Sequence record: OM386654.1
DNA length: 64,000 nt
Reading direction: 5' to 3' (one strand)
Source: Escherichia phage vB_EcoM_ESCO9
Within the stretch, counting starts at the first letter, position 1, and each line of letters opens with the position of its first letter. Both the position numbers and the translations under genes were made by a program. The notes beneath the pieces are model-generated. The model was given only the letters and a program-made list of their open reading frames with translations. It had not been told where the DNA came from and made no database searches. Below, one piece after another: positions 37,450 to 55,281 of this stretch.

Positions 37450-37698
37450 ATGCGTAAAGTAAATGTTGAAGTGCTTGAAAAATTTATAAACACCCGTGAT
37501 TGTACTATCGGCAAGGTTTACGAGGCTATTCTCATTGAAGATGGGGATGAAGTTCCTGCCCCGTATCATGCCTTTAACGGTCAGGTTAGCAAAGTGGAAG
37601 GTGGTCTTGCTATTTGCTTTATTGATGATGTAGGTGATGCTGTAGCTTTCCCTATCATTAACAAAGAAGATAAACTTAAAATTACAGAACTGAACTAG
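37450..37698 (+). CDS. hypothetical protein
   Basis: 82 aa; AGAGAGG RBS. Confidence 0.5.
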   Translation: MRKVNVEVLEKFINTRDCTIGKVYEAILIEDGDEVPAPYHAFNGQVSKVEGGLAICFIDDVGDAVAFPIINKEDKLKITELN

Positions 37699-37757
37699 TT
37701 GACTTTCTTTAAAAACAGTTTATAGTATAAGATATAGAGCGGAGGATTGTCCTCCGC
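37699..37757 (+). promoter_or_regulatory. promoter plus leader stem-loop upstream of TerC gene
   Basis: TTGACT, 17-18 nt, TAGTAT, then hairpin gcggagga-ttgt-cctccgc, then AAGAGGAG RBS. Confidence 0.5.
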
Positions 37758-37775
37758 ATTAAAGAGGAGATAAGA

Positions 37776-38753: not shown

Positions 38754-38759
38754 TTCATT

Positions 38760-38782
38760 AAGCCCCTTCGGGGGCTTTGTTG
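38760..38782 (+). terminator. intrinsic terminator
   Basis: agcccc-ttcg-ggggct then ttgtt (UUCG loop). Confidence 0.6.
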
Positions 38783-38792
38783 AGGTGATCTG

Positions 38793-38999
38793 ATGGTAGT
38801 TTTACGTGTTCTTTGGATTCTGTTTGAAAATATTTGTTTTGCTTTAGGGTTATTTTGTTTGATTTTTATCTTGACAACATACATTGATAACCATACAATT
38901 ACTATCAACAGGAACGGAGAACAGATGTATTGTTTCTCTAGGGATTTTAAAAATTGTGTTGAGACTTTAAATGAGAGGGTTACAAATGAAAAACATTAA
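38793..38999 (+). CDS. small membrane protein
   Basis: 68 aa hydrophobic N-terminus. Confidence 0.4.
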   Translation: MVVLRVLWILFENICFALGLFCLIFILTTYIDNHTITINRNGEQMYCFSRDFKNCVETLNERVTNEKH

Positions 39000-39576
39000 A
39001 TCTTTTATTGTTGCAGTTGTTTTAGGTAGTGCATTGCTGGTAGGTTGTGATGATTCTGAAAATGTACAAAATCAACGTTACCAACAAACACCAAATCAGA
39101 TGGTAGATGAACAATATGTAAATCAGCCTGCACCTCAAGTTGTTCAAGCAGCACCTGCACAACCTTCAACAGTTGTTGTGCAAGGAGGCGGCAGTGGTTC
39201 TTCTGGTGTAGGTGAGTTTGCTACAGGTATGCTTCTTGGTCATATGTTGAGTGGTAATAGTGGCGGTGGTGGTTATAGAGATGGTGGTAGCAGCACAACA
39301 ATTATTAATAACAACGCTGCTCCTACAACTAACAGTAAAGCATATACAACACAAAAGCATAGTTTTTATGATAAACAAGGAAATACATATACAACCACTA
39401 AACAAAACACAATTAAGCAGCAAAGTGTACAAACGTATTCACGCCCATCAACAACAAAAGTGAATAGTGATTACTCTGCTCGTAAGTCTTACTCAAGCCC
39501 TATTAGCTCTTATAGTAAGTCTTCGAAAAGTTATTCTTCGTCGAAACGTAGTTTTAGTAGCTCACGTCGTCGTTAA
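38986..39576 (+). CDS. lipoprotein with Gly-rich and Ser/Tyr/Lys-rich low-complexity regions
   Basis: Signal peptide with lipobox LLVGC; GGGSGSSGVG...GNSGGGG; C-terminal SYSKSSKSYSSSKRSFSSSRRR. Confidence 0.6.
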   Translation: MKNIKSFIVAVVLGSALLVGCDDSENVQNQRYQQTPNQMVDEQYVNQPAPQVVQAAPAQPSTVVVQGGGSGSSGVGEFATGMLLGHMLSGNSGGGGYRDGGSSTTIINNNAAPTTNSKAYTTQKHSFYDKQGNTYTTTKQNTIKQQSVQTYSRPSTTKVNSDYSARKSYSSPISSYSKSSKSYSSSKRSFSSSRRR

Positions 39577-39611
39577 TAATTTAATACAGATTAAATAAGA
39601 AGGAGAAACAG

Positions 39612-40463
39612 ATGAAACTAGAAGTTGGTAAAGTATATCGCCTGGAAGGTTGGATCTTTAATCAAGAAATCCTTGAGAAGAATAAAGATGGTTTTGAGTT
39701 TGTTGGTACTACCAAGGAAAGTATGCACGATGACGAATACTGTAAATTCGTTGGTAAAAATACAGGTCAAGAACAATTTTGCTTTAAGAGCGCAATCGGG
39801 GACTATGCTTCTGTAATGCCAACACCAGAAAAGACTTCGAAGCAATATACTGTCTTTGGTGTAAAACTTGAAGAACTTGTAGAACACCCACGTTTTGAAG
39901 AGTTCAAGGTTGCTGCAATGCGCAAGCATTCTGAAATTAAAATACATAATTTGTTTGATTTAGAAGATCGGTTTGATATCTTTATGTATGATCGCAGGGA
40001 AAAGCATTTTGATGCAACGACTTCAAAATTTGCTGCAACAGAGGATATTAAAATCCTTGATGTTGATACCTTTCTTGAGAGTGTATCGTTTGTATTCATT
40101 CCTAAATACAAAAAACGTAGTGATCATAAACGTGTGAAAGGAACTCCTCGTAAGAAACGTACTGTAAACAAAGCAACTTTGCACTTCACTTCTGGTGATA
40201 AATATACTCTCAAAGGGTTTGAAAGTGTTTTATATGATGCTGGAACAGGTAATATCAAGTTTATCATTAAGGCAACCTACAAAGGTACGGTATTGCACGA
40301 AGAGGCTGTTACACTACCTGTATTCGATATCTCTCGTGTTGAGGTACGGGGTGTTAAAGAGTCCTTCGATCTGGATTTCTTAACTACTAATGCTACTGGT
40401 TATGTTAATCTGGAAGCAGATGGAGCATTTATTACTACAAATTATTTAGATATGTTTGTTTAA
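39612..40463 (+). CDS. hypothetical protein
   Basis: 283 aa; AAGGAG RBS. Confidence 0.6.
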   Translation: MKLEVGKVYRLEGWIFNQEILEKNKDGFEFVGTTKESMHDDEYCKFVGKNTGQEQFCFKSAIGDYASVMPTPEKTSKQYTVFGVKLEELVEHPRFEEFKVAAMRKHSEIKIHNLFDLEDRFDIFMYDRREKHFDATTSKFAATEDIKILDVDTFLESVSFVFIPKYKKRSDHKRVKGTPRKKRTVNKATLHFTSGDKYTLKGFESVLYDAGTGNIKFIIKATYKGTVLHEEAVTLPVFDISRVEVRGVKESFDLDFLTTNATGYVNLEADGAFITTNYLDMFV

Positions 40464-40531
40464 TACTTAATTTGTGTTATGATGGTGGTACAGAGGTATC
40501 ACCATCTACTAAAGAATATGGAGGAAATTGA

Positions 40532-41635
40532 ATGTCCAGTCCTTTTATCAGTGCCGTAAAAAGCAAACCGTCTGAAATGAGTGTATTCACGGCAACAACA
40601 GAAAAAAGTAAGTCTTTGTTTGCTCCAAGTGCTATGGATGCAAGCCCTGTATATGCCCCTGCTGTTGCACGACCTGTACAAATGCTGCCTCCAATGTCTC
40701 GTGAAGAGATTGAACAGGTTGGTGCTGATGCAGGACTTACTCTTCGTAACCTTAATGCTGAAGTGCTTAAACACCAGCGTTCATCTCAGGGAGATGAAAT
40801 GAGTGAACGTTTAACTGCACTTATTAAGCAAGCAAAGCAACTTGATCCTAACTCTATTAAACAATCTAAAGGCTTAGGTAAACTAGTTAAGAAAGTATTA
40901 GGTATGAAAGAAGATTTGTTTGGTGAATTTGACACCATCAATAATCGTATTGAAGGTTTGGTAAAGACACTACAAACAGACTTGAAAAAAGAAGAAGATT
41001 CTTTACGATATCTGCAACGTTTAGAAGAGGCTATTGCAAAATATGCTCTTAGCTTAAACAGGGATATAGAGCTTCTAACAGCTACTTATGAAAAAGAAGA
41101 AGTTCGCCTTAATACACTACCTGAAAATGAAGTAGAAGAGCGTCAACGTACTCGTGACACTATGGATCTGCTTGAAATTCGTATTGCAGATCTGAAAGCC
41201 TTACGTTTACTGTGCGTTCAGATGGGGCCACGTGTACAAAGTATGCAGAAAGTATCTGCAAGTTTGATGCGATCAGCCCGTAATATTGTGAATAATGTTA
41301 TTCCTGCTTACTCTGCAAACTTTTCTATGTATATTGAAAGTCTACGCCAGAAGAAAGCAGCCGATACGCAGAACAATGTACTGAATGAATTTAATGCTGC
41401 TATTGCAATGGGTAGTGATCTGGCTGCACAAAACCAGATTGAAGCTACACAACTTGCTAATCGTCAAGTATTGGATATTGAAACATTGCGTCGTGATCAA
41501 GAAAACTTAGTTAAAATGTTGGAAGAAACTAACCGAATCAACACTGAAGCCCGTGCTGCTCGTATTGATTACATTCAAGAAGTGCAATCTCTTGAAGATG
41601 GTATGATTCAAACTGTTAAACGTGGTCTACTTTAA
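40532..41635 (+). CDS. TelA-like (toxic anion resistance) protein candidate
   Basis: 367 aa, largely helical/coiled-coil; size and LDPNSIKQSKGLGKL region fit my recollection of TelA. Confidence 0.45.
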   Translation: MSSPFISAVKSKPSEMSVFTATTEKSKSLFAPSAMDASPVYAPAVARPVQMLPPMSREEIEQVGADAGLTLRNLNAEVLKHQRSSQGDEMSERLTALIKQAKQLDPNSIKQSKGLGKLVKKVLGMKEDLFGEFDTINNRIEGLVKTLQTDLKKEEDSLRYLQRLEEAIAKYALSLNRDIELLTATYEKEEVRLNTLPENEVEERQRTRDTMDLLEIRIADLKALRLLCVQMGPRVQSMQKVSASLMRSARNIVNNVIPAYSANFSMYIESLRQKKAADTQNNVLNEFNAAIAMGSDLAAQNQIEATQLANRQVLDIETLRRDQENLVKMLEETNRINTEARAARIDYIQEVQSLEDGMIQTVKRGLL

Positions 41636-41648
41636 GGAGAAATATATT

Positions 41649-41855
41649 ATGAATATTAAAATTTACAAACTGTCTGGTTCTATGATTGCTGTTCAGTATG
41701 ACAATGAAGATCGTTATGTTCTCCTCCAGGATGCTTGGTTAGATGATCCTAATGTATTCACTGTCCTGCGAGAACTACGTTCTGTCTATACCTATTCTTC
41801 TAAAGATGGTTTTGACAATTCAACGATGGAATTGGTAAAAGAGGAGAATGTGTAA
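41649..41855 (+). CDS. hypothetical protein
   Basis: Start moved to ATG 41649 with AAGGAG RBS. Confidence 0.5.
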   Translation: MNIKIYKLSGSMIAVQYDNEDRYVLLQDAWLDDPNVFTVLRELRSVYTYSSKDGFDNSTMELVKEENV

Positions 41856-42055
41856 TGAGTAAAGATATTCACTTAACTCGTGAAGAATTGCAAACCATTA
41901 TGGAAGATGCTTTCATTGATGGTTGGAAACAAGGTCAAGAATCAGATTGGTATGATGCCGAAGATTTTTTGTATTATCATATGACTGCACCTGTAGACGA
42001 GCAAACACACTCTGAAACAACTTTGGCTTTAATTGATCTTAAGGCTGGTGTATAA
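41855..42055 (+). CDS. hypothetical protein
   Basis: 66 aa; shares EL..I...AF..GWK.G motif with C-terminus of next ORF. Confidence 0.5.
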   Translation: MSKDIHLTREELQTIMEDAFIDGWKQGQESDWYDAEDFLYYHMTAPVDEQTHSETTLALIDLKAGV

Positions 42056-42618
42056 TGGGGTGTTTTAGTTTCTTGTGCAAAGAGTCTGGTAATGCTGCTC
42101 TTTCTACCTCTTTCGATGGCTCTCCTTGCTACCTATTTCTTTTGAAAGGTGGTAAGGTTGTCGAAGAGATGTATGGGAATTATGATAGCTATGGTAGTGT
42201 TTTCTCTAACGAAGAAGATAAACATGGCAATCGTAAAAGATTTAAGTGGTCTATGCCTTGGGAAGAAGTTTGTAATTTGATGTTCTCTTCCGATCTTGGA
42301 GATGGGATTGCTCTAGTATTAGAAGAGCACTTTACAGGCGAGATCCCAACAGAAAGATCTGAAGAAGACCCTAACCAGGGTTGGGGTGATGGGGAAGAAG
42401 ATCCAGATTGCTTCTTCAGCACTGAAAATAATAAATTTAAACGTGTTGACAATCCTTACCACAAAGTGCATAATACTTGCATTGAGACAGAAGAAGACTC
42501 AAAGCTAGAAATTGAAGATGATTTAGTTGTAACTATCTCTTTAAACGAGTTGCAAAAAATCACTAGAGAGGCTTTCTATTTAGGTTGGAAAGTAGGTAAA
42601 GGAGGAGATAGTGCTTAA
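42055..42618 (+). CDS. hypothetical acidic protein
   Basis: 187 aa. Confidence 0.55.
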   Translation: MGCFSFLCKESGNAALSTSFDGSPCYLFLLKGGKVVEEMYGNYDSYGSVFSNEEDKHGNRKRFKWSMPWEEVCNLMFSSDLGDGIALVLEEHFTGEIPTERSEEDPNQGWGDGEEDPDCFFSTENNKFKRVDNPYHKVHNTCIETEEDSKLEIEDDLVVTISLNELQKITREAFYLGWKVGKGGDSA

Positions 42619-42880
42619 ATTTAATATCAAAGACGACAAATCAGATGAACCTAAATGTTTTGGAGAACTTGACGTAGGTGATACATTTGTATATTATGTT
42701 GCCTATCAAGATTCTGGTTTAGATACATTCAGAAATTTAGTGTTTATTAAGGTTAATACAAACCAAGCAATGTGTCTGAACGGTTCGCAAAGAGGTCAAC
42801 TTAGCTGTATTTCGTATGATACAGAAATGGTAGAAGTGGATTTAGAAGTTACTAACATTACACTCAGAAAGGAGAAATAA
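42611..42880 (+). CDS. hypothetical protein
   Basis: 89 aa; GTG start after AAAGGAGGAG. Confidence 0.5.
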   Translation: MLKFNIKDDKSDEPKCFGELDVGDTFVYYVAYQDSGLDTFRNLVFIKVNTNQAMCLNGSQRGQLSCISYDTEMVEVDLEVTNITLRKEK

Positions 42881-42881
42881 T

Positions 42882-43676
42882 ATGTCCAATAAAATCAGTC
42901 TTAAAAAACGTCAAGAAACTCTTACCGTATCTCTGCGTAAGAAAAAGATTAACGATGTTGTTCTTCGTGTCGGTAGTGCCTTAGATATTTCGGGTAGTAT
43001 GTGTGAGCTGTATCGTGATGGCACTGTTAGTGATTTTGTAGGTAAACTGCTGCCGTTTGGTATGAAGTTTGATGATAATGCACAGATTGACATGTGGGCT
43101 TTCAATAGTTCTTCTTTTGAACTGCCTCCTGCAACGGCTGATGTATATGATGATTATGTCGGCTCTTGTATGTCTAATGTTTGCATCAATGGTGGTACAG
43201 CTTATGCCCCAGTAATGCAAGAGATCTATGATACATACTTCGGTAGTGTACCTATGAAAAATATTACACGCGAAGTCGTTGAGTATGAAGAAGTTCCGGC
43301 TAAGGGTTTCCTTGCTAAACTAACTGGTAAAAAAGAACGTGTAGAAGTTACACGTACTGTTGTAGAACAGGTTGTAGATACTGATGCACAAGTTGATCGT
43401 ACTCCTGCAATGATTTTCTTCCAAACTGACGGGGAGAACATGGATACTTCAGCAGTACGTAGTTTGCTGAACAAACACCGCAACACTCCTGTTTACTGGT
43501 TTATGGTTGGTGTAGGCAATGCAAACTTTAAATTCCTGAAAGACTTGGCAAAAGAATACGATAATGTTGATTTTATCGGTATTGCAGATTTGTCCTTGTC
43601 TGACGAAGAACTTTACGATAAACTGCTATCCGAAGAGTTTGGTGAGTGGGTTAAAAAATTTGGAGCAAAAGCGTAA
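42882..43676 (+). CDS. vWA-domain protein, TerY-like
   Basis: MIDAS-like motifs DISGSM, GGTAYAPV, FFQTDGENMD; N-terminus ISLKK...VSL resembles TerD N-termini. Confidence 0.65.
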   Translation: MSNKISLKKRQETLTVSLRKKKINDVVLRVGSALDISGSMCELYRDGTVSDFVGKLLPFGMKFDDNAQIDMWAFNSSSFELPPATADVYDDYVGSCMSNVCINGGTAYAPVMQEIYDTYFGSVPMKNITREVVEYEEVPAKGFLAKLTGKKERVEVTRTVVEQVVDTDAQVDRTPAMIFFQTDGENMDTSAVRSLLNKHRNTPVYWFMVGVGNANFKFLKDLAKEYDNVDFIGIADLSLSDEELYDKLLSEEFGEWVKKFGAKA

Positions 43677-43683
43677 AAAACGC

Positions 43684-43711
43684 TTGACTTTGTAGAAAAG
43701 ATTAGTAAAAT
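43684..43711 (+). promoter_or_regulatory. sigma70-type promoter upstream of TerD gene
   Basis: TTGACT, 16 nt, TAAAAT. Confidence 0.55.
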
Positions 43712-43748
43712 AGACAACGTAAATTAACAACAAAGGAGATAATAAATT

Positions 43749-44345
43749 ATGACTCAGAAAATTTCCCTGAAAAAAGGTTCTAGCGAAAAAGTTTCTCTGA
43801 AAAAGATTGCACCAGCACTGAAACGCATTCGTCTGGAATTCTCTTGGAAATCTAACGAAAAACTGGATCTGGATGTTAGTGCTCTGATTTGCCGACACAA
43901 TGCATCTGGTCTGCCGGAACTGTTGTCTCCTCGCCACCTGGTGTGCTACGCGCAGAAATTTGATCCTGAACGTTCTACTTTTGCAGGTGAAGATGTTCGT
44001 GATGGTGTAGGACAGATGGAGCAGATTGATGTTACACTGGATAATATCTCTGCTGAAGCACAGGAAATTGCATTCGTAATTACTATTGATGACGAAACGG
44101 GTAAGAAACGCCTTGGTCACGCTACCGAAGGTTTCCTTAAAATCTTCGATGATGAACGTAATGTTGAACTGCTGGATTTTGACTTCTTGGCTCCAGAACT
44201 TGCAGGTAATACCATTTGCCACGTTGCCTCCCTGGTGCGGGAAGATAGCGAATGGAAACTGAAAGCATATGGTGTAGGTAAAGCTGGACTTGACATTTAT
44301 GATGTAGTTAAAGCGTTTGGCGCTGGCGACGATTGGTTCGAGTAA
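43749..44345 (+). CDS. TerD-domain protein
   Basis: ISLKKG..VSLKK, DLDVSAL, IAFVITIDD, SEWKLKAYGVG align with E. coli TerD. Confidence 0.85.
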   Translation: MTQKISLKKGSSEKVSLKKIAPALKRIRLEFSWKSNEKLDLDVSALICRHNASGLPELLSPRHLVCYAQKFDPERSTFAGEDVRDGVGQMEQIDVTLDNISAEAQEIAFVITIDDETGKKRLGHATEGFLKIFDDERNVELLDFDFLAPELAGNTICHVASLVREDSEWKLKAYGVGKAGLDIYDVVKAFGAGDDWFE

Positions 44346-45000: not shown

Positions 45001-45092
45001 CAGGGTGTAAGAGGGGGATAATCCCCCTCAACTTGCAAAACAGCCTCTTCTGTGTTACAATAAAAGTTCGTTTAACAAAATAGGAGGCAAGT

Positions 45093-45602
45093 TTGTCAAT
45101 AAAAACCTTTGTCGCAATTGCGTTACTATCCTTAACTGCTTTTACATTTACACCTGTCGTGGCGCAAGCCGAAGCTGCAAACGTAAAAACTGCTAAAGTA
45201 GTTCACAAGTGTACAAAGCGTGATAGTAAAGAAAATCTATTAGCTTGTGCAATCTATGCAGAAAGTCGTAATCAAGGAAAGCGCGGTATGTCTGCTGTTG
45301 GTAATGTAGTATTAAATAGGGCTAGAGATTCATATTTCCCTGATACTATAAAAGAAGTTTTGTTTCAAAAAGGACAATTCTCTTACACAAAGACATTCAA
45401 CGTTATGGAACGTGATAAGTGGAAGGAAGCTAAGGCTATAGCAGAACGTCTGCTTTATCTCGATACGCATTTTCCAGAATTACGAATTGCATTAGATATT
45501 ACAAAAGGAGCATTATACTTTAAAAAATCTACAATAAGAGCACACTGGGAAAAAGATATGGTTCTAGTGTACCGCTACAAAGAACATCAATTCTATCGCT
45601 AA
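45093..45602 (+). CDS. secreted cell-wall hydrolase, SleB-like (candidate endolysin)
   Basis: Signal peptide; LLACAIYAESRNQGKRGMSAVGNVVLNRARDSYFPDTI; TTG start after GGAGG. Confidence 0.65.
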   Translation: MSIKTFVAIALLSLTAFTFTPVVAQAEAANVKTAKVVHKCTKRDSKENLLACAIYAESRNQGKRGMSAVGNVVLNRARDSYFPDTIKEVLFQKGQFSYTKTFNVMERDKWKEAKAIAERLLYLDTHFPELRIALDITKGALYFKKSTIRAHWEKDMVLVYRYKEHQFYR

Positions 45603-45612
45603 GGAGATATAG

Positions 45613-45891
45613 ATGAAAGATGGCGTTATCGTTGCAAGTTATCTTGTTATTGGTCTTACAGAAGAGGATGTACATTACATTAGGAAACATTTAGAACAGT
45701 TTGCAATGATGTTCATCGAAGACGAAGACAATATGGATGTTTATTCAATTGAAATGATCAATGATAACGTCTATCCTTGTATAGCTTTACGAGTCGATGA
45801 AGATGTTTGGGAACGTTTTTCACGTAGTCACGATAATGTTGAATGTTCTATGGTTATGTCACAAAACAACATACTGGGAGTGTTACACTGA
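45613..45891 (+). CDS. hypothetical protein
   Basis: 92 aa. Confidence 0.5.
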   Translation: MKDGVIVASYLVIGLTEEDVHYIRKHLEQFAMMFIEDEDNMDVYSIEMINDNVYPCIALRVDEDVWERFSRSHDNVECSMVMSQNNILGVLH

Positions 45892-46121
45892 TGGCTGATG
45901 TTATTGAGGTTAACTTTAAAACAAAAAAGAAAGTTGATAAGTATACAATCTTAAAAAATATTTGCGTTGTGTGCTTCAATTCTGTAATATATGACTCACG
46001 TAAGGGCGAAAATGAAAATGAACCTTACATCCAGATTTCTAAAGGTAAAGGGCAGTGTATCTGCAAAAACTGTGCTGTAGCAATTAAGGAGGTTGTAGAT
46101 GAAAACCATTGGGATCAATGA
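45891..46121 (+). CDS. hypothetical protein with CxxC pairs
   Basis: Start moved to ATG 45891 (TGATG overlap). Confidence 0.45.
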   Translation: MADVIEVNFKTKKKVDKYTILKNICVVCFNSVIYDSRKGENENEPYIQISKGKGQCICKNCAVAIKEVVDENHWDQ

Positions 46122-46293
46122 TACTGGTGAAGTTGTAAAATCTTGGGATGATCTTAGTGGTATCCCTACAGATAAGCTGATTAAACTGCGTGATGTTTGT
46201 CGTGATCATCTTAATGAAACATATAAAGAGTATATGGAAGCACGAGATCACAGTTTAGCTATCCAAATGGAACTCGCAAAACGTAATCAATAG
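46099..46293 (+). CDS. hypothetical protein
   Basis: 64 aa; AAGGAGG RBS. Confidence 0.45.
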   Translation: MKTIGINDTGEVVKSWDDLSGIPTDKLIKLRDVCRDHLNETYKEYMEARDHSLAIQMELAKRNQ

Positions 46294-46350
46294 GTAAAAC
46301 CATTTGGACTTTTTAGTCTAAAAATGCTAAAGTAATAATACGGAGGGAGT

Positions 46351-46914
46351 ATGATATTTCACATAACTCCCTATCTTTCTGGAGATATTGGAAAAGGTAT
46401 CAATGACACAATAAGTGTCTTACCAGAAGATAGTTGGATTTGCCTAAGAGACATTGATACAATGTTTCTTCTTCCAGAACAACCTGCTTGGCTGGAATCA
46501 ATTGTCCGTTCAAATCCTGATTTTGATGTTCTTGGTGCATCTTGTAACAGATTGGGATCAACATATCAATTATTTAATAATGAAAGAAGTGAAGATCCGA
46601 ATATATTACACCACATTGAGATTGCAAAAAGAGCACATCTAGAATGGGGAAACTCAATAGAGGAAGTACCTACAGATGCTATCTTAGCAGGATTCTTTCT
46701 TCTCTTTCGTAAGAGTCTGTGGAATGAAATTCCTTTTGAGGAAAGATCAATACAGTTTGATATAATTTTCTCTAAAGCATTGCACGCTAACAATAAAAGG
46801 CTAGGTTTACTACGTGGGTTATATTTATTTCACACATACCGTTTAGGTAATGATGATCCTAGAAAAGCTGTTTCACACCTTTTACATTGTCAAGACATGA
46901 ATAAAATTATTTAA
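46351..46914 (+). CDS. possible GT-A-like glycosyltransferase (weak)
   Basis: DxD-like LRDIDTMF; position in glycosyltransferase cluster. Confidence 0.35.
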   Translation: MIFHITPYLSGDIGKGINDTISVLPEDSWICLRDIDTMFLLPEQPAWLESIVRSNPDFDVLGASCNRLGSTYQLFNNERSEDPNILHHIEIAKRAHLEWGNSIEEVPTDAILAGFFLLFRKSLWNEIPFEERSIQFDIIFSKALHANNKRLGLLRGLYLFHTYRLGNDDPRKAVSHLLHCQDMNKII

Positions 46915-46923
46915 GGAGTTATT

Positions 46924-47610
46924 TTGGAAAATACAAAAATTGGTGTTGGTGTTATTACTGTAGGTAAGCGTCCTCTTAAAGATTATCTTGTGACTGATCC
47001 TAGTGCTACTTTTGTTGTACAGTATGATCGGGAACGAAAAGGTGTTGCATATGCTCGTAATGAACTGATGAAAAAGTTTTATGATGAAGGATATGATTAC
47101 TGGTTTATTTTTGATGATGATTGCTATCCTGTTGTTCAAGGTTGGGAAACATATTTTGTAAAACAGGCGAAGGAAAATGGTTGGGATTTCTTTGGTATGC
47201 CTGAATACTTTAAAGATAAAGTAAAAGGTATTGAAGGGGAAGTGGTTATTTGGGAGCTAGGAATGTGCCAGTTTGGTATGTATTCCCGTGCAGTTATTGA
47301 GAAAGCTGGCTATTTCCGCTCATACACCCACGGCTATGGGTATGAAGATGCAGAGTGGATTCATCGCGTCCCACTGGCAGGTTTGAACCGAGGTATTCAA
47401 GGCGTACCATGTCCTATTCGAATTATGGCGTTTATCCATCCTGATGATGTATTTGGAGACAATCCTTTACCTTTTGCGAATCTGTCAAAAGAAGAGAAAG
47501 AACAGGGGATTGGTGTAAACTGGGAACAATATAAACAATCCCTGGAGGATCTTCGCAATGGTAAAACTTTTATCTCTTATGAGGAGGCTCAAAAATATGG
47601 TAAATCCTAA
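46924..47610 (+). CDS. GT-A fold glycosyltransferase (family-2-like)
   Basis: WFIFDDDCYP DxD motif and GYGYEDAEW..R. Confidence 0.6.
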   Translation: MENTKIGVGVITVGKRPLKDYLVTDPSATFVVQYDRERKGVAYARNELMKKFYDEGYDYWFIFDDDCYPVVQGWETYFVKQAKENGWDFFGMPEYFKDKVKGIEGEVVIWELGMCQFGMYSRAVIEKAGYFRSYTHGYGYEDAEWIHRVPLAGLNRGIQGVPCPIRIMAFIHPDDVFGDNPLPFANLSKEEKEQGIGVNWEQYKQSLEDLRNGKTFISYEEAQKYGKS

Positions 47611-48571
47611 TACTCCTGTACTTAAGTGTGATAATAAGTTAGGCAGTGGTTGTGATTACCATCGTATTGTAATGCCATTTGCTGGAAATACGTTTAAACC
47701 TAAGAAAGACGTTTTAGTTTTTAATAGAGTGTATTCTCGTGGATCAGACGAAGTTAAACGCCTGAAGGCACAAGGTGTTAAGATTATTGTTGATTTAGAT
47801 GATTTTTATTCGCTTAATCCTGAACATTATATGGCTGGCGTATTTACTAATCACTCAAAGACTATTGTAGAGATGATTAAGTTAGCAGATGTGGTTACTG
47901 TAACAACAGAATACCTAGCTTACAAAATTCGTCATTTAAATCGTAATGTTGTCGTTATTAGAAACGCACTACCTTACGACGAAGGTCAATTTACTTTGAC
48001 AAAAGACCGTTATTCTGACACGCCTATTATTTGGGCGGGAGGAGCAAGCCATGAACCTGATTTATCTCTTGTAGCTAATACATTTGATGATACGCTATTG
48101 ACAATTGCAGGGTATGAAGTGTATCCTTCTGCACCTGTTGGAAATAATAGTCAGTATCTAACTACTGCGGAGTGGGTTAAAGTAAAACGTAAAATTCCAA
48201 ATGCACAGTATAAACCAGCTATTAAAAATTTAGGTGAGTATATGTCTGTGTATGACGGTCACAGTATTGCAATTGCTCCTCTGGTAGATAATGACTTCAA
48301 CAACTGTAAAAGCAATTTGAAGATTTTGGAAGCAGGTGCAAAGGGTCTTCCTATTATCTGTTCTCCTGTGCTGCCGTACTTCAATCCGGTAGATGCAAAG
48401 GCTGTTATCTATGCAGACTCTAAAGCATCTTGGCATTATAAAGTTGTCAAGCTAATGAGGAACCCTAGATACACAGAAGATCGTGGTATGATGCTTGCAG
48501 AACACGTTCGTCTTAATTATAATCTTGCAGATGCTAATGAACTGCGTCGTCAAGTTATTGAAAGTCTTTAA
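47597..48571 (+). CDS. GT-B fold glycosyltransferase; paralog of 48583..49527
   Basis: C-terminal KSNLKILEAGAKGLPIICSP; start moved to ATG 47597 after GAGGAGG. Confidence 0.6.
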   Translation: MVNPNTPVLKCDNKLGSGCDYHRIVMPFAGNTFKPKKDVLVFNRVYSRGSDEVKRLKAQGVKIIVDLDDFYSLNPEHYMAGVFTNHSKTIVEMIKLADVVTVTTEYLAYKIRHLNRNVVVIRNALPYDEGQFTLTKDRYSDTPIIWAGGASHEPDLSLVANTFDDTLLTIAGYEVYPSAPVGNNSQYLTTAEWVKVKRKIPNAQYKPAIKNLGEYMSVYDGHSIAIAPLVDNDFNNCKSNLKILEAGAKGLPIICSPVLPYFNPVDAKAVIYADSKASWHYKVVKLMRNPRYTEDRGMMLAEHVRLNYNLADANELRRQVIESL

Positions 48572-48582
48572 TAAGGAGCTAT

Positions 48583-49527
48583 ATGCCTAATATTATTCTT
48601 GACACACGCGGAAATGAAAAGTATAGTGTATGTGATTTTCATAGAATCATTTTGCCATATAAACGCAAACTGACCATTAATCCTAAGCATAATATTTTTG
48701 TGTTCAATGGAGTACCAACACGTGGAAAGCCAGGTTTCCTGGCTCTTAAACAACTTGGGTTTAAATTGGTAATGGATCTGGATGATTCTTTAATTATTCC
48801 TGAAGGGCATATGCTTGAAGGATTATTTGAAAATCAAATCCGAGATGACCTAAAATGGTTCCTTGAAAGAAGTGATCTTGTAACTACAACAACTCCGGCA
48901 TTAAAGGTTGAATTAAGCCAATACAATGATAATGTACATATTGTGCCTAACGGACTACCTTTTGATGAAGGACAGTTTGTTCTTACTAAAGATCGTTATT
49001 CTAAAAGTCCACTGGTTTGGGCGGGAAGTGAAACACATAAACATGATTTAGCAATTCTTCCTGATTTTGGTAAAGATTTAACTTTATGTGGATTTCGTAG
49101 AGATCACGAAGAGTTAAGTAGTGCTCAATGGTTGCAAATTAAAGAAAATATTCAACCAGATTGTGTTTATGAAGGTATTCGTCCTTATGAGTGTTATATG
49201 GAAGCATACGATGGTCATCAAATCTCCATAGCTCCATTAGTAAATAATCATTTTAATAATGCCAAAAGTAATTTAAAAATTCTTGAAGCTGGTGCTAAAG
49301 GTTTGCCACTCGTTTGTTCGCCACGAGAGAACTATTATACTGAAGAATTTAAAGATCTAATCTTCTTTGCTGATTCAGTTAAAGAGTGGAAAGATATTGT
49401 AGAATACTTAATCGAATCCCCTGATGTTTGTATTGAGAAAGGATTGGCTCTTGCTAAGTATGTAAGAGATAACTACAATATTGATGATTTAAATGAAACC
49501 CGCAGACTGCTTATCGAGGATTTATAA
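48583..49527 (+). CDS. GT-B fold glycosyltransferase; paralog of 47597..48571
   Basis: KSNLKILEAGAKGLPLVCSP; shared DGH.I.IAPLV.N.FNN.KSNLKILEAGAKGLP block. Confidence 0.6.
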   Translation: MPNIILDTRGNEKYSVCDFHRIILPYKRKLTINPKHNIFVFNGVPTRGKPGFLALKQLGFKLVMDLDDSLIIPEGHMLEGLFENQIRDDLKWFLERSDLVTTTTPALKVELSQYNDNVHIVPNGLPFDEGQFVLTKDRYSKSPLVWAGSETHKHDLAILPDFGKDLTLCGFRRDHEELSSAQWLQIKENIQPDCVYEGIRPYECYMEAYDGHQISIAPLVNNHFNNAKSNLKILEAGAKGLPLVCSPRENYYTEEFKDLIFFADSVKEWKDIVEYLIESPDVCIEKGLALAKYVRDNYNIDDLNETRRLLIEDL

Positions 49528-49796
49528 TGCACACTTTTGATTTTGAGTATAAACAAGATAATAAAGAACCTATTATTGTTGAAGTAGATTACTATTATGA
49601 AGAACCTAACCCTTTCTCACGAGAAAGTGATTGGGATTATTATGGTGGTCTTATTGTTGATGGTATTAGGTTTTATTCTGGTACAAAAGACCTTTTTGAT
49701 ATAGATATTTCCCCATCGGAAATTGTTTACCAATTTAAGAAACATATGGAAGATTTGGAAATGCAATATATTATGGAGACAAACGAATCATTTTAG
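49527..49796 (+). CDS. hypothetical protein
   Basis: 89 aa. Confidence 0.5.
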   Translation: MHTFDFEYKQDNKEPIIVEVDYYYEEPNPFSRESDWDYYGGLIVDGIRFYSGTKDLFDIDISPSEIVYQFKKHMEDLEMQYIMETNESF

Positions 49797-49808
49797 TAGG
49801 AGAATCCT

Positions 49809-51581
49809 GTGTCTTATGTTGTAAATAAATATGGGTATAACATTGATCTAAGTCAAGAAGGACATACTGGGTGTCCTCGTTGTATGAAAGGAGGGCGTGA
49901 TCGATCACAAAACAATTTGATGGTATATGGCTTAGATGCCGATGAAGACCATCGAGGCGCACATTGTTTTTCTTGTGGCTTTACTATCCCTGATCAAAAA
50001 TGGTTAAATGCACACGGCGAAGAAATTGAAGAGGAGGATATCTTGGGTAGTGAGTTTAATCCAGAAGTACATGATAAACTAAAAGCCAGCACTGGAACTA
50101 ATCCAAAAGGTTATCGCGGTATTCGTGAAGATATCTCTAAGCCTTTCGGTGTACGTTATATGTACGATGAAGCTACTGGCGAAGTAATTTCAACACTATA
50201 CCCTACAACTAAAGATTACAATATTGCTGGGTATAAACAACGTATCGATCCAAAAGATTTCTCACATCCTATCGGTGAAACAGGAAAGGATTGTGATCTT
50301 TTTGGGGAGTTTAAATATCGTAACCACAGCGGTACTATTCTAATCGTTGGTGGTGAACACGATATGCTGGCTGCAACACAGATGCTAAAAGATTATAACA
50401 AGGGTGGTAAATATCCTGTTCCTGCTGTAGTATCTGGTACTTGTGGCGAAACATCTCTGCATAAGCAGCTTCAACATCGTTATAAATTCTTAGATCAATT
50501 TAAAAAGATTGTTCTATGTATGGATAATGATGAAGCTGGACGTGCAGCAGTTGAGAAATGTGTTAAAATCTTACCACGTAATAAAGTTTACGTGATGGAA
50601 CTAACGGATGTTAAAGATCCTAACCAGGCACTAGTAGAAGGAAAAATTGATCATTTTATTGATCGCTTTTTCAAAGCTAAACTGTACACACCTGCTGGTG
50701 TTTACGCTTCTAACGTACTATATGAAGCAGCCTTGGAATGCCTGGAAGCTAAAATGATCACCCTTCCTCCATTCATGCGTGTTGCTTCGAATATGTTAGG
50801 TGGAGGCTTGGTAGAAGAAGAAATTACTGTTATACTTGCAAAAACAAGTATCGGTAAGACACTGTTGGTTAACGAGATTACGAAACACATTATTCTTGCA
50901 CACCCAGAACATACTCTTGGTATTTTATCTTTGGAGGCAACGTATAAGAAGTATTCTCGTAACTTACTGTCTTCATTCTTGCATATCCCTCTTCACCGTA
51001 AAACGAAAGAAGAGAAGGAAAAGATTTTAAAAGATAATGAAGAAAAGATTCGTGATTTTTACGAACGAGAAGATGGAACACCACGTTTCTATGTTTGTGA
51101 TGATCGTGGAGCTAACGTAGATGTGATTAAAGAGAAGGTTCTGGAAATGATTATTTATTTCGGAGTAACCATTCTTGTTATCGACCCTTATTCTGACTTG
51201 CTTTCTGGTATGGACGTGTCACAACAAGAGGAACTTGCGACGTGGCTGAAACGCATTATGAAAGAGTATGCAATAACCATTGTTGTAATTTCACACGTTA
51301 AAAAGTCTTCTAACAATAGTAATGAACATATTGTAGAAGATGATGCAATGGGTAGTAGCTTCCTTGCTAAAGGTGCTGGTATCACAATTGCGCTGGAGCG
51401 TGATAAACAAGCTGAAGATCCTATGGAACGTAACCGCACATATTGCTACATTCTAAAGAACCGTGAGTTCTCAGAGACTGGTGCAGCAGGTAGTTTCTTC
51501 TATGAGATTAAAACAGCTACACTTCACGATTACGATCAATACACAAGTAACCCAGAGAATATTCCTGATGGTTCTTATTAA
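49809..51581 (+). CDS. bifunctional DNA primase-helicase (T7 gp4-like)
   Basis: N-terminal Zn finger CPRC...CFSCGF; TOPRIM-like VGGEHD / DNDEAG; Walker A AKTSIGKT; Walker B LVIDPYSD. Confidence 0.85.
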   Translation: MSYVVNKYGYNIDLSQEGHTGCPRCMKGGRDRSQNNLMVYGLDADEDHRGAHCFSCGFTIPDQKWLNAHGEEIEEEDILGSEFNPEVHDKLKASTGTNPKGYRGIREDISKPFGVRYMYDEATGEVISTLYPTTKDYNIAGYKQRIDPKDFSHPIGETGKDCDLFGEFKYRNHSGTILIVGGEHDMLAATQMLKDYNKGGKYPVPAVVSGTCGETSLHKQLQHRYKFLDQFKKIVLCMDNDEAGRAAVEKCVKILPRNKVYVMELTDVKDPNQALVEGKIDHFIDRFFKAKLYTPAGVYASNVLYEAALECLEAKMITLPPFMRVASNMLGGGLVEEEITVILAKTSIGKTLLVNEITKHIILAHPEHTLGILSLEATYKKYSRNLLSSFLHIPLHRKTKEEKEKILKDNEEKIRDFYEREDGTPRFYVCDDRGANVDVIKEKVLEMIIYFGVTILVIDPYSDLLSGMDVSQQEELATWLKRIMKEYAITIVVISHVKKSSNNSNEHIVEDDAMGSSFLAKGAGITIALERDKQAEDPMERNRTYCYILKNREFSETGAAGSFFYEIKTATLHDYDQYTSNPENIPDGSY

Positions 51582-51591: not shown

Positions 51592-51987
51592 ATGAAAGAC
51601 AACGAAAATATCCTTTATGGGGTATCCCCTTCTGCGTTAGGGTATGATTATACGAAAACTGTTGCTAAGTTTAAATTTCAAGATGGATCGGAGTTAGAAC
51701 CATACGGTTATGCTTATGGTGAACATTTGTGGTTTGAGGATGGTTGCCTATACCTTCTCATTCAAACTACCAGTGGTTTTGTGGGAGAGCTTGTAGATCG
51801 TATGCTGAAAAATGTTAGTGATAAAGTTGTTCTTGATATCGCTAGTAAGGATGAAAACATTAATAACATTGTTTCCACTTTTAATGGTTTGACAGGCACT
51901 GTTAAAATTGAACGTGTAGGCTTGAGAAATACCAATGGTGTCCCTAATTGCCTTATTAAAGTACAACTAAGTGCTGACAATAAATAA
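51592..51987 (+). CDS. hypothetical protein
   Basis: Start moved to ATG 51592 after AAGGAGAG. Confidence 0.5.
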   Translation: MKDNENILYGVSPSALGYDYTKTVAKFKFQDGSELEPYGYAYGEHLWFEDGCLYLLIQTTSGFVGELVDRMLKNVSDKVVLDIASKDENINNIVSTFNGLTGTVKIERVGLRNTNGVPNCLIKVQLSADNK

Positions 51988-52077: not shown

Positions 52078-54657
52078 ATGGGAGCTTTTACTTTCGACAT
52101 TGAAAGTAACAACTTGCTTAATGACGAAAGTGTAGATTACTTGGCAAGTCCATATCGTTTAAAAGATAGTTTTGCAATGCACTGTATTGTGTGCGAAAGT
52201 CATGATACTGGAGAGATTATTGCTTTCCATGATGGTGATAAATATCTTTTCGATGGTCGTCCGTATATTGAGACTGACGGAAAGTATGAATACCGACTGG
52301 AGGAATATGAGCATTTAGAATATACCCATTTCCCTCTTAAAGATTTTCCTGATTTTGTAAATGGAACAGGTAAATTTAAAGGTAATTCAAACTATAAAAT
52401 TACCAAAGTAGTTGGACATAACATCATTAACTTTGACTTACTGGCAATTAAATTATTTTTTAAACTCAACTACAGTATTAAGTACAATACTTGGGGTAAT
52501 AGTAACATTGAAATTTGTGATACTATGATCTTAAGTAAGACACTAAACCCTGATCGCTTCGGTGGTCATAGTCTGGCAGAGTTATCTAAGAAAGCTGGAG
52601 GGGATGTTAAAATTGATTTTAGAAAAAACATCCCTGAAACTGAAAGATTTAAAACATTTGCAGCAGATATGCTGTATTACTGTATTTACGATAACAAAGC
52701 TAACACCGCAGTGTTCCGTTATTTGATGGAAGAGTGGGGTGATTATAATAAGTGGTCTGAACCATTTAACTTAGAACAACGTGTAGCTGATATTATTACA
52801 CGTCAAGAGCACCGTGGCTTTGCTTTCAATATGAAGCAAGCAGAAGATAATATTCGTGATCTGGATGCTCGAATGGAAGCATGTCGTTTAGAGGCAGAAC
52901 CTGTGCTACCTCCTAAACCTGCTACTAAAGGTTATTTGAAATCATTCATTCCACCTAAACTACAGTTTAAAAAGAATGGTGAACCTTCAAGTAACATGAT
53001 AAAGTTTGCAGAGAAACATTCTGGTGAACTTGTACAAAAAGAAGATGGTTGGTGGTTATTTGCATTAGGTAAAGAGTTTAAACTGCCTATTCCAGCAGAA
53101 GAACCTATTTGTGATCCTACAGTACCTGCTACTTTAGACGACACTACACATATTAAAAATTGGTTAGTTGGTTTAGGTTGGAGTCCATCTGAATATAAAG
53201 ATAAAGATATCACTCTTAAATCTGGCACTAAGATTAAGAAAGATGAAGCACAAATGGAGAAAGCTATTCGTGACTATGTTGATCAAACATTAGCATCTAA
53301 CTTCTGCCAGGATAGATGTGATCATCTGGAGTGCACACCAGAAACTTTGGAATGGAAACTAAGAGATCGTATTGCTAAAGCTAAAGGTCGTGGTGTTAAG
53401 GTGCTTACTAACCCTTCCTTTACAAAAGGGCAAGAGAAGGATATTTGTCCTAACTTGGAAGCACTAGGTGAAAAGTTTCCTTATGCTACGCAGATTGTGC
53501 AGTATCTTACGTATAAACATCGTAGAAACTCTATTCTAGGCGGTGGTGCTGATTGGGAAGAGGATGAAGAGGATTACGATAAAGGTTATCTGGCGGCAGT
53601 AAGGGCTGATGGTCGTATACCGACTCCTGCTGCAACGTGTGATGCAGCTACGTCTCGTATGAAACATAGGTTAGTAGCAAATATCCCACGTGTAACATCT
53701 CTGTACGGATATGAAATGCGTAACTTATTTGGTGTAGAAGTTCCAAAATACTTCCAAATTGGTTATGACTTTGATTCTCTTGAGGCAAAAATAGAATCAC
53801 ACTACTGTTGGCGGTACGAGCAGGAACCACATGAATATTGTAATGCTCTATTATTGGAAAAACCTAATGATGTTCATACAATGATGGCTCGACGTATTTC
53901 TGACACTATTGGTCGTAAGTTTGAACGAAGCCCTGCTAAATCTGTTAAGTATGGTATTACTTATGGTGCTCAAGCTGCAAAAGTAGCAAAAACTATAGGT
54001 AGTGATATGTATACAGGACAGCTTGTATACGATGCTTTCTGGGAAGCTGCAAAACCTCTTGCGCTTCTTAAAGAACGTCTGCATGATTTTTGGGTTAAAA
54101 CAGGTAAGAAATACATTCTTGGTATTGATGGTAGGAAAGTACCTACACGATCTGCACACGCAATACTTAACTCTCTGTTCCAGAGTGGTGGTGTTATTTG
54201 TGCAAAAAGAGCAATGGTTATCTACGACGATCTTATCGAAGAAGAAGGATTAGCTGTTGACTTTTTTGTTGATGACTGGAAAAATAAGTCATTCGTTCAA
54301 CAAATGATTGCATATCACGATGAAGCACAGCTTGAAGTAACTCGTGATCTGGTGCATTTTAAATGGTTCTCTAAAGAATCTTTAGGTTGGACTCAAGTTG
54401 ATGATCCAGAAGAACAAAAGAAAATTGATAAAGAATGTTTGGATAAGGTTAATGCCTGGAAAGAAGAGGAAGAGAAACGTACTGGCAAGATTTGGGCTAA
54501 CGTACATGAATCTCCGAAAGGTGGTTGGTTTACAGCCTACAGTCGTGCTGGAGAATTAGCATCTATCGCTGTTAATAAAGCTGGTGAGTATTACAATCTT
54601 AATGTACCTCTCACTGCTGGTTACGATGTTGGTAGTTCATGGTCAACTTGTCACTGA
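52078..54657 (+). CDS. family A DNA polymerase with 3'-5' exonuclease domain
   Basis: Exo I FDIES; motif A-like GYDFDSLEAKI; motif B RSPAKSVKYGITYG; motif C YHDEAQLEV. Confidence 0.9.
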   Translation: MGAFTFDIESNNLLNDESVDYLASPYRLKDSFAMHCIVCESHDTGEIIAFHDGDKYLFDGRPYIETDGKYEYRLEEYEHLEYTHFPLKDFPDFVNGTGKFKGNSNYKITKVVGHNIINFDLLAIKLFFKLNYSIKYNTWGNSNIEICDTMILSKTLNPDRFGGHSLAELSKKAGGDVKIDFRKNIPETERFKTFAADMLYYCIYDNKANTAVFRYLMEEWGDYNKWSEPFNLEQRVADIITRQEHRGFAFNMKQAEDNIRDLDARMEACRLEAEPVLPPKPATKGYLKSFIPPKLQFKKNGEPSSNMIKFAEKHSGELVQKEDGWWLFALGKEFKLPIPAEEPICDPTVPATLDDTTHIKNWLVGLGWSPSEYKDKDITLKSGTKIKKDEAQMEKAIRDYVDQTLASNFCQDRCDHLECTPETLEWKLRDRIAKAKGRGVKVLTNPSFTKGQEKDICPNLEALGEKFPYATQIVQYLTYKHRRNSILGGGADWEEDEEDYDKGYLAAVRADGRIPTPAATCDAATSRMKHRLVANIPRVTSLYGYEMRNLFGVEVPKYFQIGYDFDSLEAKIESHYCWRYEQEPHEYCNALLLEKPNDVHTMMARRISDTIGRKFERSPAKSVKYGITYGAQAAKVAKTIGSDMYTGQLVYDAFWEAAKPLALLKERLHDFWVKTGKKYILGIDGRKVPTRSAHAILNSLFQSGGVICAKRAMVIYDDLIEEEGLAVDFFVDDWKNKSFVQQMIAYHDEAQLEVTRDLVHFKWFSKESLGWTQVDDPEEQKKIDKECLDKVNAWKEEEEKRTGKIWANVHESPKGGWFTAYSRAGELASIAVNKAGEYYNLNVPLTAGYDVGSSWSTCH

Positions 54658-54684: not shown

Positions 54685-55281
54685 ATGCTTACCGTATATG
54701 GTGAAGGTATTAATGATTTGGAAGGCGAGAGTACGCTACCTGGTAGTAAGAAACTAACGCCGCATTATATGAAATGGATGGCTATGTTGGGGAGGTGTTA
54801 CTCCCCTTGTCAACAAGAACGTGATCCTTGTTATAATGGGGTGACGGTTTGTGAAGAATGGAAACTGTTCTCCAATTTCTACTCTTGGTTGCAAACTTGG
54901 GATAACTGGGAAAACTTAGAACTTGATAAAGATATTATAGGAGGGAGAGTTTACTCTCCCGATACCTGTCTTTTAGTAACAGGAGATCTTAACAAGTTCT
55001 TAGCTTATAGAGTAAGTAAAAGATCTCATGGGACTATGGTAGGATGTAGTTACGAAAAAGATCGTAAAAAGTATAAAGCCCATATTCAACGTGATGGACG
55101 TGTTATAACACTGGGACGTTTTAATACTGAAATTGAAGCGCATCTTTGTTGGTTGAAGGCTAAGGCAGAACAGCTTACAAAATTCTTTGAAACTGAAGAT
55201 GAAAGAGTTGTTCCACATCTTAAAGCACTATATAATGAAATGCTTGAGCATGTAGAACAACACAAAGAGTGGACACGATAG
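54685..55281 (+). CDS. HNH-family homing endonuclease with AP2-like DNA-binding domain
   Basis: Y..W..M..RC N-terminal pattern; C-terminal YKAHIQRDGRVITLGRFNTEIEAHLCW AP2-like. Confidence 0.55.
   Translation: MLTVYGEGINDLEGESTLPGSKKLTPHYMKWMAMLGRCYSPCQQERDPCYNGVTVCEEWKLFSNFYSWLQTWDNWENLELDKDIIGGRVYSPDTCLLVTGDLNKFLAYRVSKRSHGTMVGCSYEKDRKKYKAHIQRDGRVITLGRFNTEIEAHLCWLKAKAEQLTKFFETEDERVVPHLKALYNEMLEHVEQHKEWTR

Follow-up and report, generated by a model that had tools for sequence, protein, structure and literature searches.

A glycosyltransferase cluster of phi92-like coliphages that may build a rhamnose-containing oligosaccharide on a protein acceptor

Cytoplasmic glycosylation is established for autotransporter adhesins (AIDA-I/Aah, TibA/TibC), and phage tailspikes share a beta-helical architecture with these adhesins. 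Glycosyltransferases (GTs) encoded by phages have been described that act on virion proteins or on DNA. According to the account given in PMC11256854, Freeman et al. 2023 found that capsid proteins in cluster F mycobacteriophages are glycosylated by GTs that the phages themselves encode. For phage GT-A enzymes that act on DNA (TAGT/JGT-like), Pyle et al. 2023 (bioRxiv 10.1101/2023.12.21.572611) give two defining features, an R...DDD...EDY/F signature and a 5mYOX or ThyS partner. Here we examine a cluster of four GT genes at 46351-49527 in a 64,000-nucleotide stretch of DNA from Escherichia phage vB_EcoM_ESCO9 (OM386654.1; the whole stretch is called the window below), a phi92-like myophage of the genus Justusliebigvirus. 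The annotation of these genes as GTs is already known, and the rhamnose pathway of these phages has been remarked on in the literature. We tentatively read the cluster as a cytoplasmic module that builds an oligosaccharide containing rhamnose; the acceptor would be a protein, most plausibly a peripheral one of the virion, and we consider it likely that the acceptor is not DNA.

An earlier reading of the window, made without database searches (the sequence-only reading), had proposed a four-gene GT cluster at this place, and all four open reading frames (ORFs) were found:

GT1: 46351..46914, + strand; 187 aa, predicted minimal GT-A-fold glycosyltransferase; equals phi92 gp166 and VEcB gp194
GT2: 46924..47610, + strand; 228 aa, TTG start, predicted GT-A fold, GT2/Glyco_transf_7C type
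GT3: 47597..48571, + strand; predicted GT-B type, 324 aa with the RefSeq start and 337 aa from the ATG at 47558
GT4: 48583..49527, + strand; 314 aa, predicted GT-B type, paralog of GT3

GT2 and GT3 overlap by 14 nt. Between 46000 and 50000 the window matches Escherichia phage VEcB at 100% identity, and phi92 and ~50 other isolates at 98-99%; outside this interval the identity to VEcB is 92-99%, and the alignment is collinear from 32015 to 64000. The cluster corresponds to phi92 gp166-163, which RefSeq already labels glycosyltransferases, and the BASEL records name two of its genes 'putative glycosyltransferase' and two 'putative disaccharide synthase'. Compared with their Phapecoctavirus orthologs, the GT genes have a saturated proportion of synonymous differences (pS 0.69-0.82) and a low proportion of nonsynonymous differences (pN 0.15-0.24), which is the same regime as that of the primase-helicase gene and indicates that the four GT genes are functional.

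GT1 and GT2 were modelled confidently by AlphaFold2 (pLDDT 93.5 and 89.5, respectively), each as a single Rossmann-like alpha/beta/alpha domain like that of known GT-A enzymes, and both have a conserved DxD metal/nucleotide-binding motif in GT family alignments built from metagenomic homologs. The invariant positions of GT1 are D34-x-D36-T37, N66-R67, H161-x-Y163-R164 and H176, with D34-x-D36 invariant in 33 family sequences, and those of GT2 are F63-D64-D65-D66 and Y138-G139-x-E141-D142, with DDD and E141-D142 invariant in 17 family sequences. Models and invariant motifs agree with the sequence-only reading that two of the proteins are GT-A-like with DxD motifs, and we predict that GT1 and GT2 are GT-A-fold nucleotide-sugar glycosyltransferases, though the two have no relationship to each other in sequence. 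GT1 has no Pfam and no NCBIfam match, and the only Pfam match of GT2 is a sub-threshold one to TAGT. The GT2 profile aligns with a Glyco_transf_7C-type phage GT at an hhalign probability of 98.3%, and remote homologs of GT2 occur in ~350 Mycobacterium phages at ~25% identity (E 1e-5 to 1e-8), many of them with a listed position close to the right end of the genome. When the profiles of all three GT families were searched against the PDB, only a marginal match to b4GalT7 (E=1) and a weak GT1-family match came up, and the BFVD structure search returned generic viral GT-A proteins, many of them nameless.

The sequence-only reading was also right to describe the other two proteins as GT-B-like paralogs. 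GT3 and GT4 are 41% identical (E=3e-83), and their profile matches place both among the GT-B-type glycosyltransferases. GT4 passes the Pfam threshold for Glyco_trans_1_2 (26.8 bits against a gathering score of 25) and also matches phrog_7162; GT3 matches phrog_7162 at E=3.9e-149 and stays below threshold for Glyco_trans_1_4 and Glyco_trans_1_2 (15.7 and 18.7 bits), and homologs of the pair carry PF13524, PF13692, PF13439 and PF00534. Invariant residues in the GT4 family (A3) are D67-D68, H152, K228-S229, K232 and E235, and the weak GT1-family match in the PDB mentioned above was made by the GT-B profile to 5i45 (E=0.0086). In the classification of the GTs with hidden Markov models, which had been proposed as a check, GT4 scores above its Pfam cutoff, GT1 is without a match and GT2 and GT3 are sub-threshold; an NCBIfam scan of the four GTs and of the 89-aa ORF that follows them gave no matches. 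None of the four GTs has a transmembrane (TM) segment (maximum 19-aa hydropathy <=1.21), and GT1, GT2 and GT4 are acidic, with GT3 being basic (pI 8.6). GT4 is a later, lineage-specific duplicate: Justusliebigvirus, Phapecoctavirus and phiWec179-like phages have it and Klebsiella phage KP2025 does not, GT3 being the member of the pair that was kept in the Klebsiella relatives.

VEcB encodes RmlA, RmlB, RmlC and RmlD, all of which exceed their NCBIfam equivalog cutoffs (bit score/cutoff: TIGR01207 471/360.65; TIGR01181 440.7/365.1; TIGR01221 259.7/155.75; TIGR01214 253.6/224.05). The rml genes lie at 23261-26522 of the VEcB record, ~75 kb from the GT cluster and beyond the window, and we assumed that the window phage shares them; RmlC is found in 105 Escherichia-phage records of the lineage. 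GT1, GT2, GT4 and RmlC occur in essentially one common set of phage records, with 105-106 Escherichia phages each. In KP2025, GT1 (75% identity) and the GT3 ortholog (66%) are both at the syntenic site and a GT2-like gene (35% identity) has been relocated to the early region, and this phage keeps only RmlC and RmlD, without RmlA and RmlB. Enterobacterales already make dTDP-4-keto-6-deoxyglucose for enterobacterial common antigen (ECA) via RffH and RffG. Since the host can make this precursor and KP2025 has retained just the two rhamnose-specific enzymes that follow, dTDP-L-rhamnose would be the metabolite that the module needs, and it is the probable donor for at least one of the GTs given the complete RmlABCD set of VEcB. 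The conserved core consists of GT1, GT2, one GT-B and RmlC/D.

Homologs from outside this lineage were found in other kinds of genomic context (L numbers are our labels for loci). In Cellulophaga phage phi18:1 the GT1 homolog is the C-terminal half of a two-domain GT that sits between portal/head-morphogenesis and prohead protease/capsid genes, beside a Methyltransf_24 gene, and L016 has a GT1 homolog between its terminase and portal/capsid genes, accompanied by Glycos_transf_2, a polysaccharide deacetylase and two Methyltransf_24 genes. Adjacent GT2 and GT-B homologs open a terS-terL-portal-MuF-protease-capsid operon in L010, divergent from the replication genes. A GT-B gene is upstream of terS/terL in L013, and in Streptomyces phage KimJongPhill a UDP-glucose dehydrogenase and a methyltransferase are followed by the GT-B homolog and then by terS. 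Among IMG/VR loci, 15 have a GT-B gene 0.4-3.5 kb upstream of terL on the same strand, and GT-B and GT1 homologs are adjacent at nine. When the Pfam families of 142 dereplicated neighbours were tallied, capsid (8), portal (7) and terminase families came first, sugar-nucleotide enzymes and sugar methyltransferases were also present, and neither Thymidylat_synt nor Tet_JBP was among the 25 families listed; this tally was made without a formal null model, and the embedding in head operons was given more weight. Homologs in L012 and L014 belong to large sugar islands after replication genes, so that the structural/packaging association, which is absent in the window with its replication block, is seen in many of the out-of-lineage homologs and is missing in L012, L014 and a further contig, L146, that is taken up below. 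As a separate observation, phi18:1 gp40 (L006 5868-6335) is labelled 'DNA methyltransferase', matches Methyltransf_24 only, and is more likely a sugar or protein methyltransferase.

Two bacterial GT-B homologs have adhesin genes as neighbours. One, in Burkholderia dolosa (L009, 3025-8440), adjoins an intimin/invasin-type adhesin gene and the other, on a metagenomic contig (L017, 100-5501), adjoins a pertactin-type autotransporter gene and shares its contig with three more GTs. Both may belong to an uncharacterised family of adhesin glycosyltransferases. The adhesin genes beside these homologs, at two loci only, suggest a protein acceptor, and the head-operon and adhesin contexts together fit glycan assembly on proteins, particularly virion proteins. 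The combination of a minimal GT-A, a Glyco_transf_7C-type GT-A and a short GT-B, often accompanied by sugar-tailoring enzymes, is a recurring phage module that is widespread in viral metagenomes.

The mechanism we propose would involve soluble, cytoplasmic, Leloir-type GTs, two of them inverting-type GT-A and two of them GT-B enzymes. Phage-made dTDP-L-rhamnose (RmlABCD) would feed the stepwise assembly of a short oligosaccharide on an acceptor other than DNA, with one enzyme placing an initial sugar on a Ser/Thr (or other) side chain, the remaining enzymes extending it, and the GT4 duplicate perhaps adding or varying one linkage. That none of the GTs has a TM segment, that three of the four are acidic, and that a flippase and a priming transferase are not annotated in VEcB all point to a soluble acceptor. 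This would be a protein, the best candidate being a virion protein that is glycosylated in the cytoplasm before or during assembly. We infer the rhamnose donor, the protein acceptor, the virion protein as that acceptor, and the order of action. In a 2026 cryo-electron microscopy (cryo-EM) study of phi92 (PMC13450770), the capsid, cement, portal, connector, sheath, tube and baseplate were modelled at 3-4.5 A and for the lateral fibers the resolution was 7 A at best; as no glycan was published for the core, fibers or tailspikes are likelier acceptors than the ordered capsid or tail core.

Several points weigh against a virion protein as the acceptor. The same cryo-EM paper mentions no glycan or unexplained density on the phi92 core proteins, we found no direct evidence for glycosylated proteins in phi92-like virions, and the structural proteins show no conspicuous Ser/Thr-rich tail of an acceptor-like kind. 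The cluster lies in a replication/nucleotide-metabolism block, away from the structural genes, and its promoters do not mark it as early or late. The link between the Rml enzymes and the GTs is a co-occurrence within one viral lineage, and none of the window GTs resembles Che8 gp108-110 by BLASTP (E>=0.5 for all pairs). The genomic contexts also have to be read with care, since in small (40-kb) phages a large fraction of genes is within 6 kb or less of head genes by chance, and Pyle et al. 2023 (bioRxiv 10.1101/2023.12.21.572611) note that DNA-glycosylating clusters at times adjoin structural genes too. Lastly, in the viral contig L146 a distant GT1-like domain forms the C-terminus of a 476-aa protein whose neighbours, given with the DNA alternative below, include a hydroxymethylase-like gene and make up a setting typical of DNA hypermodification.

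The sequence-only reading placed the GTs upstream of the primase-helicase and DNA polymerase genes, which is borne out, with the 89-aa ORF lying between:

Weak sigma-70-like promoter candidate: 46304..46333, + strand; TTGGAC-N18-TAAAGT, read from the sequence in the 57-bp gap before GT1
GC-rich hairpin at 45011-45029 with promoter-like TTGCAA-N17-TACAAT at 45033-45061, + strand
89-aa acidic ORF: 49527..49796, + strand; pI 4.1, start overlapping the GT4 stop; phrog_4240, function not assigned
Primase-helicase: 49809-51581, downstream of the 89-aa ORF
Family-A DNA polymerase: 52078-54657, downstream of the primase-helicase

No terminator was detected in a scan from 45093 to 51581, and the elements at 45011-45061 are likely the start of a transcription unit that takes in a SleB-like hydrolase, three small ORFs and the four GTs before it enters the primase gene. 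The site at 46304-46333 was missed by the consensus scan and is like the TTGACA-N17-TAAAGT sites before structural genes. Sigma-70-like sites of the form TTGACA-N17-TAnAnT precede structural and replication units alike and no distinct late motif was found. The 89-aa ORF always follows a GT-B gene in the lineage, is syntenic in KP2025 (47% identity), L018 and phAPEC8, and has a pN/pS consistent with purifying selection; its product may be an accessory of the GT module or of the replisome, and its membership in the cluster is uncertain. The SleB-like cell-wall hydrolase (Hydrolase_2; 45093-45602, + strand) has a TTG start and a hydrophobic N-terminus, and this lysis-type gene shares an apparent transcription unit with the GTs and the primase. 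Upstream of it, at 33435-44345 on the + strand, this virulent phage carries a Ter-type stress-response module that is syntenic in KP2025 and L018:

HAD hydrolase: 34986-35660, + strand
ComF-like PRTase_3: 35653-36510, + strand
TerC-like membrane protein: 37776-38753, + strand
TelA-like protein: 40532-41635, + strand
vWA-TerF protein: 42882-43676, + strand
TerD: 43749-44345, + strand

DNA hypermodification, in which the GTs would glycosylate (rhamnosylate) a modified base as a defence against restriction or other host systems, as in T-even phages or MT/TET/GT clusters, was the leading explanation of the sequence-only reading, and we now think it unlikely; that reading had left the substrate open and listed virion glycosylation and host-surface modification as alternatives, which was fair. 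Its starting point was that the cluster comes directly before primase-helicase and DNA polymerase, an arrangement taken to be typical of DNA modification, but this adjacency is not conserved, as GT2 of KP2025 is elsewhere and the out-of-lineage homologs are mostly with head or packaging genes, and base-modification genes are missing near most of these homologs. No base hydroxymethylase was seen in the window then and none is there, and the genome-wide search called for at the time, which we ran on VEcB, returned neither a ThyA-type hydroxymethylase nor a TET/JBP dioxygenase (annotation plus Pfam/NCBIfam scans of 30 VEcB/window proteins, including all hypotheticals of at least ~158 aa and leaving out ORFs below ~130 aa). 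The VEcB 'thymidylate synthase' is ThyX and not ThyA-type. What the genome does offer such a pathway is a Dcm-type C5 methyltransferase, one of several DNA methyltransferases in VEcB, a MazG-like pyrophosphohydrolase and the divergent ThyX. Assignment of GT2 to TAGT (PF20691) was considered and rejected, with a score of 22.1 bits against a cutoff of 27.5 over residues 26-79 only. TAGT gave weak matches in 11 of the 17 GT2 family members (best E=1.5e-4), while the positive control, T6 ggt (beta-glucosyl-HMC alpha-glucosyltransferase), scored 35.8 bits, above threshold; hhalign of the GT2 family profile with T6 ggt gave a probability of 0.7%, meaning no relationship, and what GT2 has is the generic R...DDD...ED active-site pattern. 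The GT-B profile likewise did not find the T4 alpha-GT or beta-GT among solved structures, and the acidity of three of the four GTs also speaks against a DNA substrate. Olsen et al. 2020 (PMC7552041) speculated that hydroxymethylated nucleotides are rhamnosylated in these phages, but Maffei et al. 2021 (PMC8594841) found phi92-like phages 'exceptionally susceptible' to restriction-modification (RM) systems despite their 'putative dTDP glycosylation machinery', so by published phenotyping their DNA lacks the protection from RM that is seen in T-even phages. We found no rhamnose-containing DNA modification in the searchable literature, and no restriction-digest or liquid chromatography-mass spectrometry data on phi92-like DNA in the literature. 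A genomic argument for DNA comes from L146, where the gene order is primase-helicase, ThyA-family protein (35% identity to T6 dCMP hydroxymethylase), MazG-like, ribonucleotide reductase (RNR), the 476-aa protein with the GT1-like domain, GT-D-like and pyruvyl-transferase; where a hydroxymethylase is present, a DNA pathway can thus probably recruit the GT1 family. The region itself (1589-8987 of IMGVR_UViG_3300025086_000074) may encode a pathway to a DNA glycan of unusual elaboration. There is also a variant, which we regard as quite improbable, in which DNA is rhamnosylated without a ThyA-type or TET enzyme at a density too low to block the RM systems tried; for example, the divergent ThyX-like enzyme could supply the acceptor base, or only the sites of one of the orphan methyltransferases could carry the modification.

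Remodelling of the host envelope is the alternative that we find somewhat less improbable than DNA, although still doubtful. The GTs would then modify lipid-linked host glycans, such as the lipopolysaccharide (LPS) core or Und-PP-linked ECA, O-antigen or colanic acid intermediates, on the cytoplasmic side of the inner membrane, and would use phage-made dTDP-rhamnose to mask receptors, exclude superinfecting phages or stop progeny from adhering to cell debris. These phages do use surface glycans and the LPS core as receptors (PMC8594841), one record labels a cluster member 'RfaG glycosyltransferase', BASEL records have 'disaccharide synthase', and a supply of dTDP-rhamnose from the phage frees the modification from host serotype. 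A GT bound peripherally to the membrane can do without a TM segment, and GT3 is basic, but GT1, GT2 and GT4 are acidic and look soluble, none of the four GTs matches an NCBIfam LPS/O-antigen family, and neither a flippase, a polymerase, a priming transferase nor a Gtr-type membrane protein is annotated in VEcB. A virulent phage also has little time for surface turnover, and the homologs in other phages are embedded in head/packaging operons and not beside integrases or tailspikes, the usual sites of seroconversion genes. Gtr-type seroconversion in particular was rejected, as the GTs have no TM segments, GtrA/GtrB/GtrC-type genes are not annotated in VEcB, and the lineage is described as lytic and was isolated as a plaque-forming phage. 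Another soluble acceptor, whether a non-virion phage or host protein (by toxin-like or EarP-like rhamnosylation, or to neutralise a defence protein) or a small molecule, for instance the nucleoside-like metabolite that has been predicted for the neighbouring Ter-associated PRTase/HAD module, seems to us about as unlikely as DNA. It would suit enzymes that are predicted to be soluble and cytoplasmic and that are co-transcribed with early/middle-type genes ~1 kb downstream of the Ter module (PRTase_3, HAD, TerD, TerF-vWA), a synteny that is kept in KP2025 and L018; the adhesin genes beside the bacterial GT-B homologs point to protein acceptors in general, and phi92 core virion proteins are without a reported glycan. 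We gave the Ter-GT linkage less weight because it is confined to one vertically related lineage, with no Ter genes near the out-of-lineage homologs examined. Moreover, three to four different GTs and a dedicated sugar pathway suggest an oligosaccharide and not a single inactivating sugar, and similarity to EarP, Lgt or NleB-type enzymes was not detected.

Other features of the window and its relatives are worth recording. The 609-aa ORF at 31118-32947 (+ strand) is uninterrupted in the window phage, while VEcB has at the same site (~32005-32015) a ~780-bp insertion with the HNH/NUMOD homing endonuclease gp167 that splits its gene for anaerobic ribonucleotide reductase; the two near-identical phages are thus polymorphic for the presence of a mobile element. 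Endonuclease-type ORFs also flank the DNA polymerase at 54685-55281 and 51592-51987 (both + strand; VEcB gp202, HNH, and gp200, 'endonuclease'), and the DNA polymerase of KP2025 is annotated as two separate coding sequences, which suggests mobile-element traffic in the replisome genes of the lineage. By length and position, the 183-aa ORF at 16712-17263 (- strand) corresponds to VEcB gp135, a NADAR-domain protein (E=5.8e-36). NADAR enzymes reverse DNA ADP-ribosylation, making this ORF a candidate counter-defence gene. VEcB ThyX (L001 32430-33401) is divergent (Pfam Thy1 38 bits, TIGR02170 far below cutoff), has a ~150-aa C-terminal extension and is 66% identical in KP2025.

Phi92-like and phAPEC8-like phages are broad-host-range therapy candidates, and more than 100 sequenced coliphages carry the GT module and their own rhamnose supply. 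If the acceptor is a virion protein, as we tentatively favour, virion glycosylation would extend from mycobacteriophages to phages of Gram-negative bacteria, with consequences for immunogenicity, stability, mucus or receptor interactions and host range; in mycobacteriophages it has so far been shown to change antibody recognition. If instead DNA were rhamnosylated without a ThyA-type or TET enzyme, a DNA base carrying rhamnose would be on record for the first time, and DNA glycosylation would have a further, new route. Our results also illustrate that proximity to the replisome or a weak TAGT match is insufficient for calling DNA hypermodification.

Several known systems can be set beside the cluster. 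Bacterial glycan assembly from dTDP-L-rhamnose combines RmlABCD with rhamnosyltransferases of the GT2 and GT4 families (Listeria RmlT, O-antigen WbbL-type), but the system described here is encoded by a virulent phage, has no lipid-carrier machinery and has no NCBIfam rhamnosyltransferase match. The AIDA-I/Aah and TibA/TibC systems recall the bacterial homologs of GT3 and GT4, which likewise lie by autotransporter genes (at two loci), although sequence similarity to the heptosyltransferase family was not detected in the window GT-Bs. T-even and MT-5mYOX-GT systems resemble the window in having phage GT-A and GT-B enzymes near replication genes; GT2 shares with them only the generic R...DDD...ED pattern and a weak TAGT match, the hydroxymethylase or TET partner was not found here, the phages are sensitive to RM, and the probable donor, dTDP-rhamnose, is not known in DNA modification. 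Mycobacteriophage Che8 (gp108-110) differs from the window phage in its host, which is Gram-negative here, and in that the window GTs are located with replication genes, include GT-B enzymes and are joined by a rhamnose pathway, and in that no glycan has been seen on phi92 virions. Its own three GTs are not detectably similar to ours, and GT2 is related to a different GT family of other Mycobacterium phages. Che8 nevertheless carries its GT genes near the right genome end, as do many of the Mycobacterium phages with GT2 homologs, and like the window it has several soluble GT-A-type phage GTs without a base-modification partner, the product of which, in the account available through PMC11256854, is a glycan on structural proteins.

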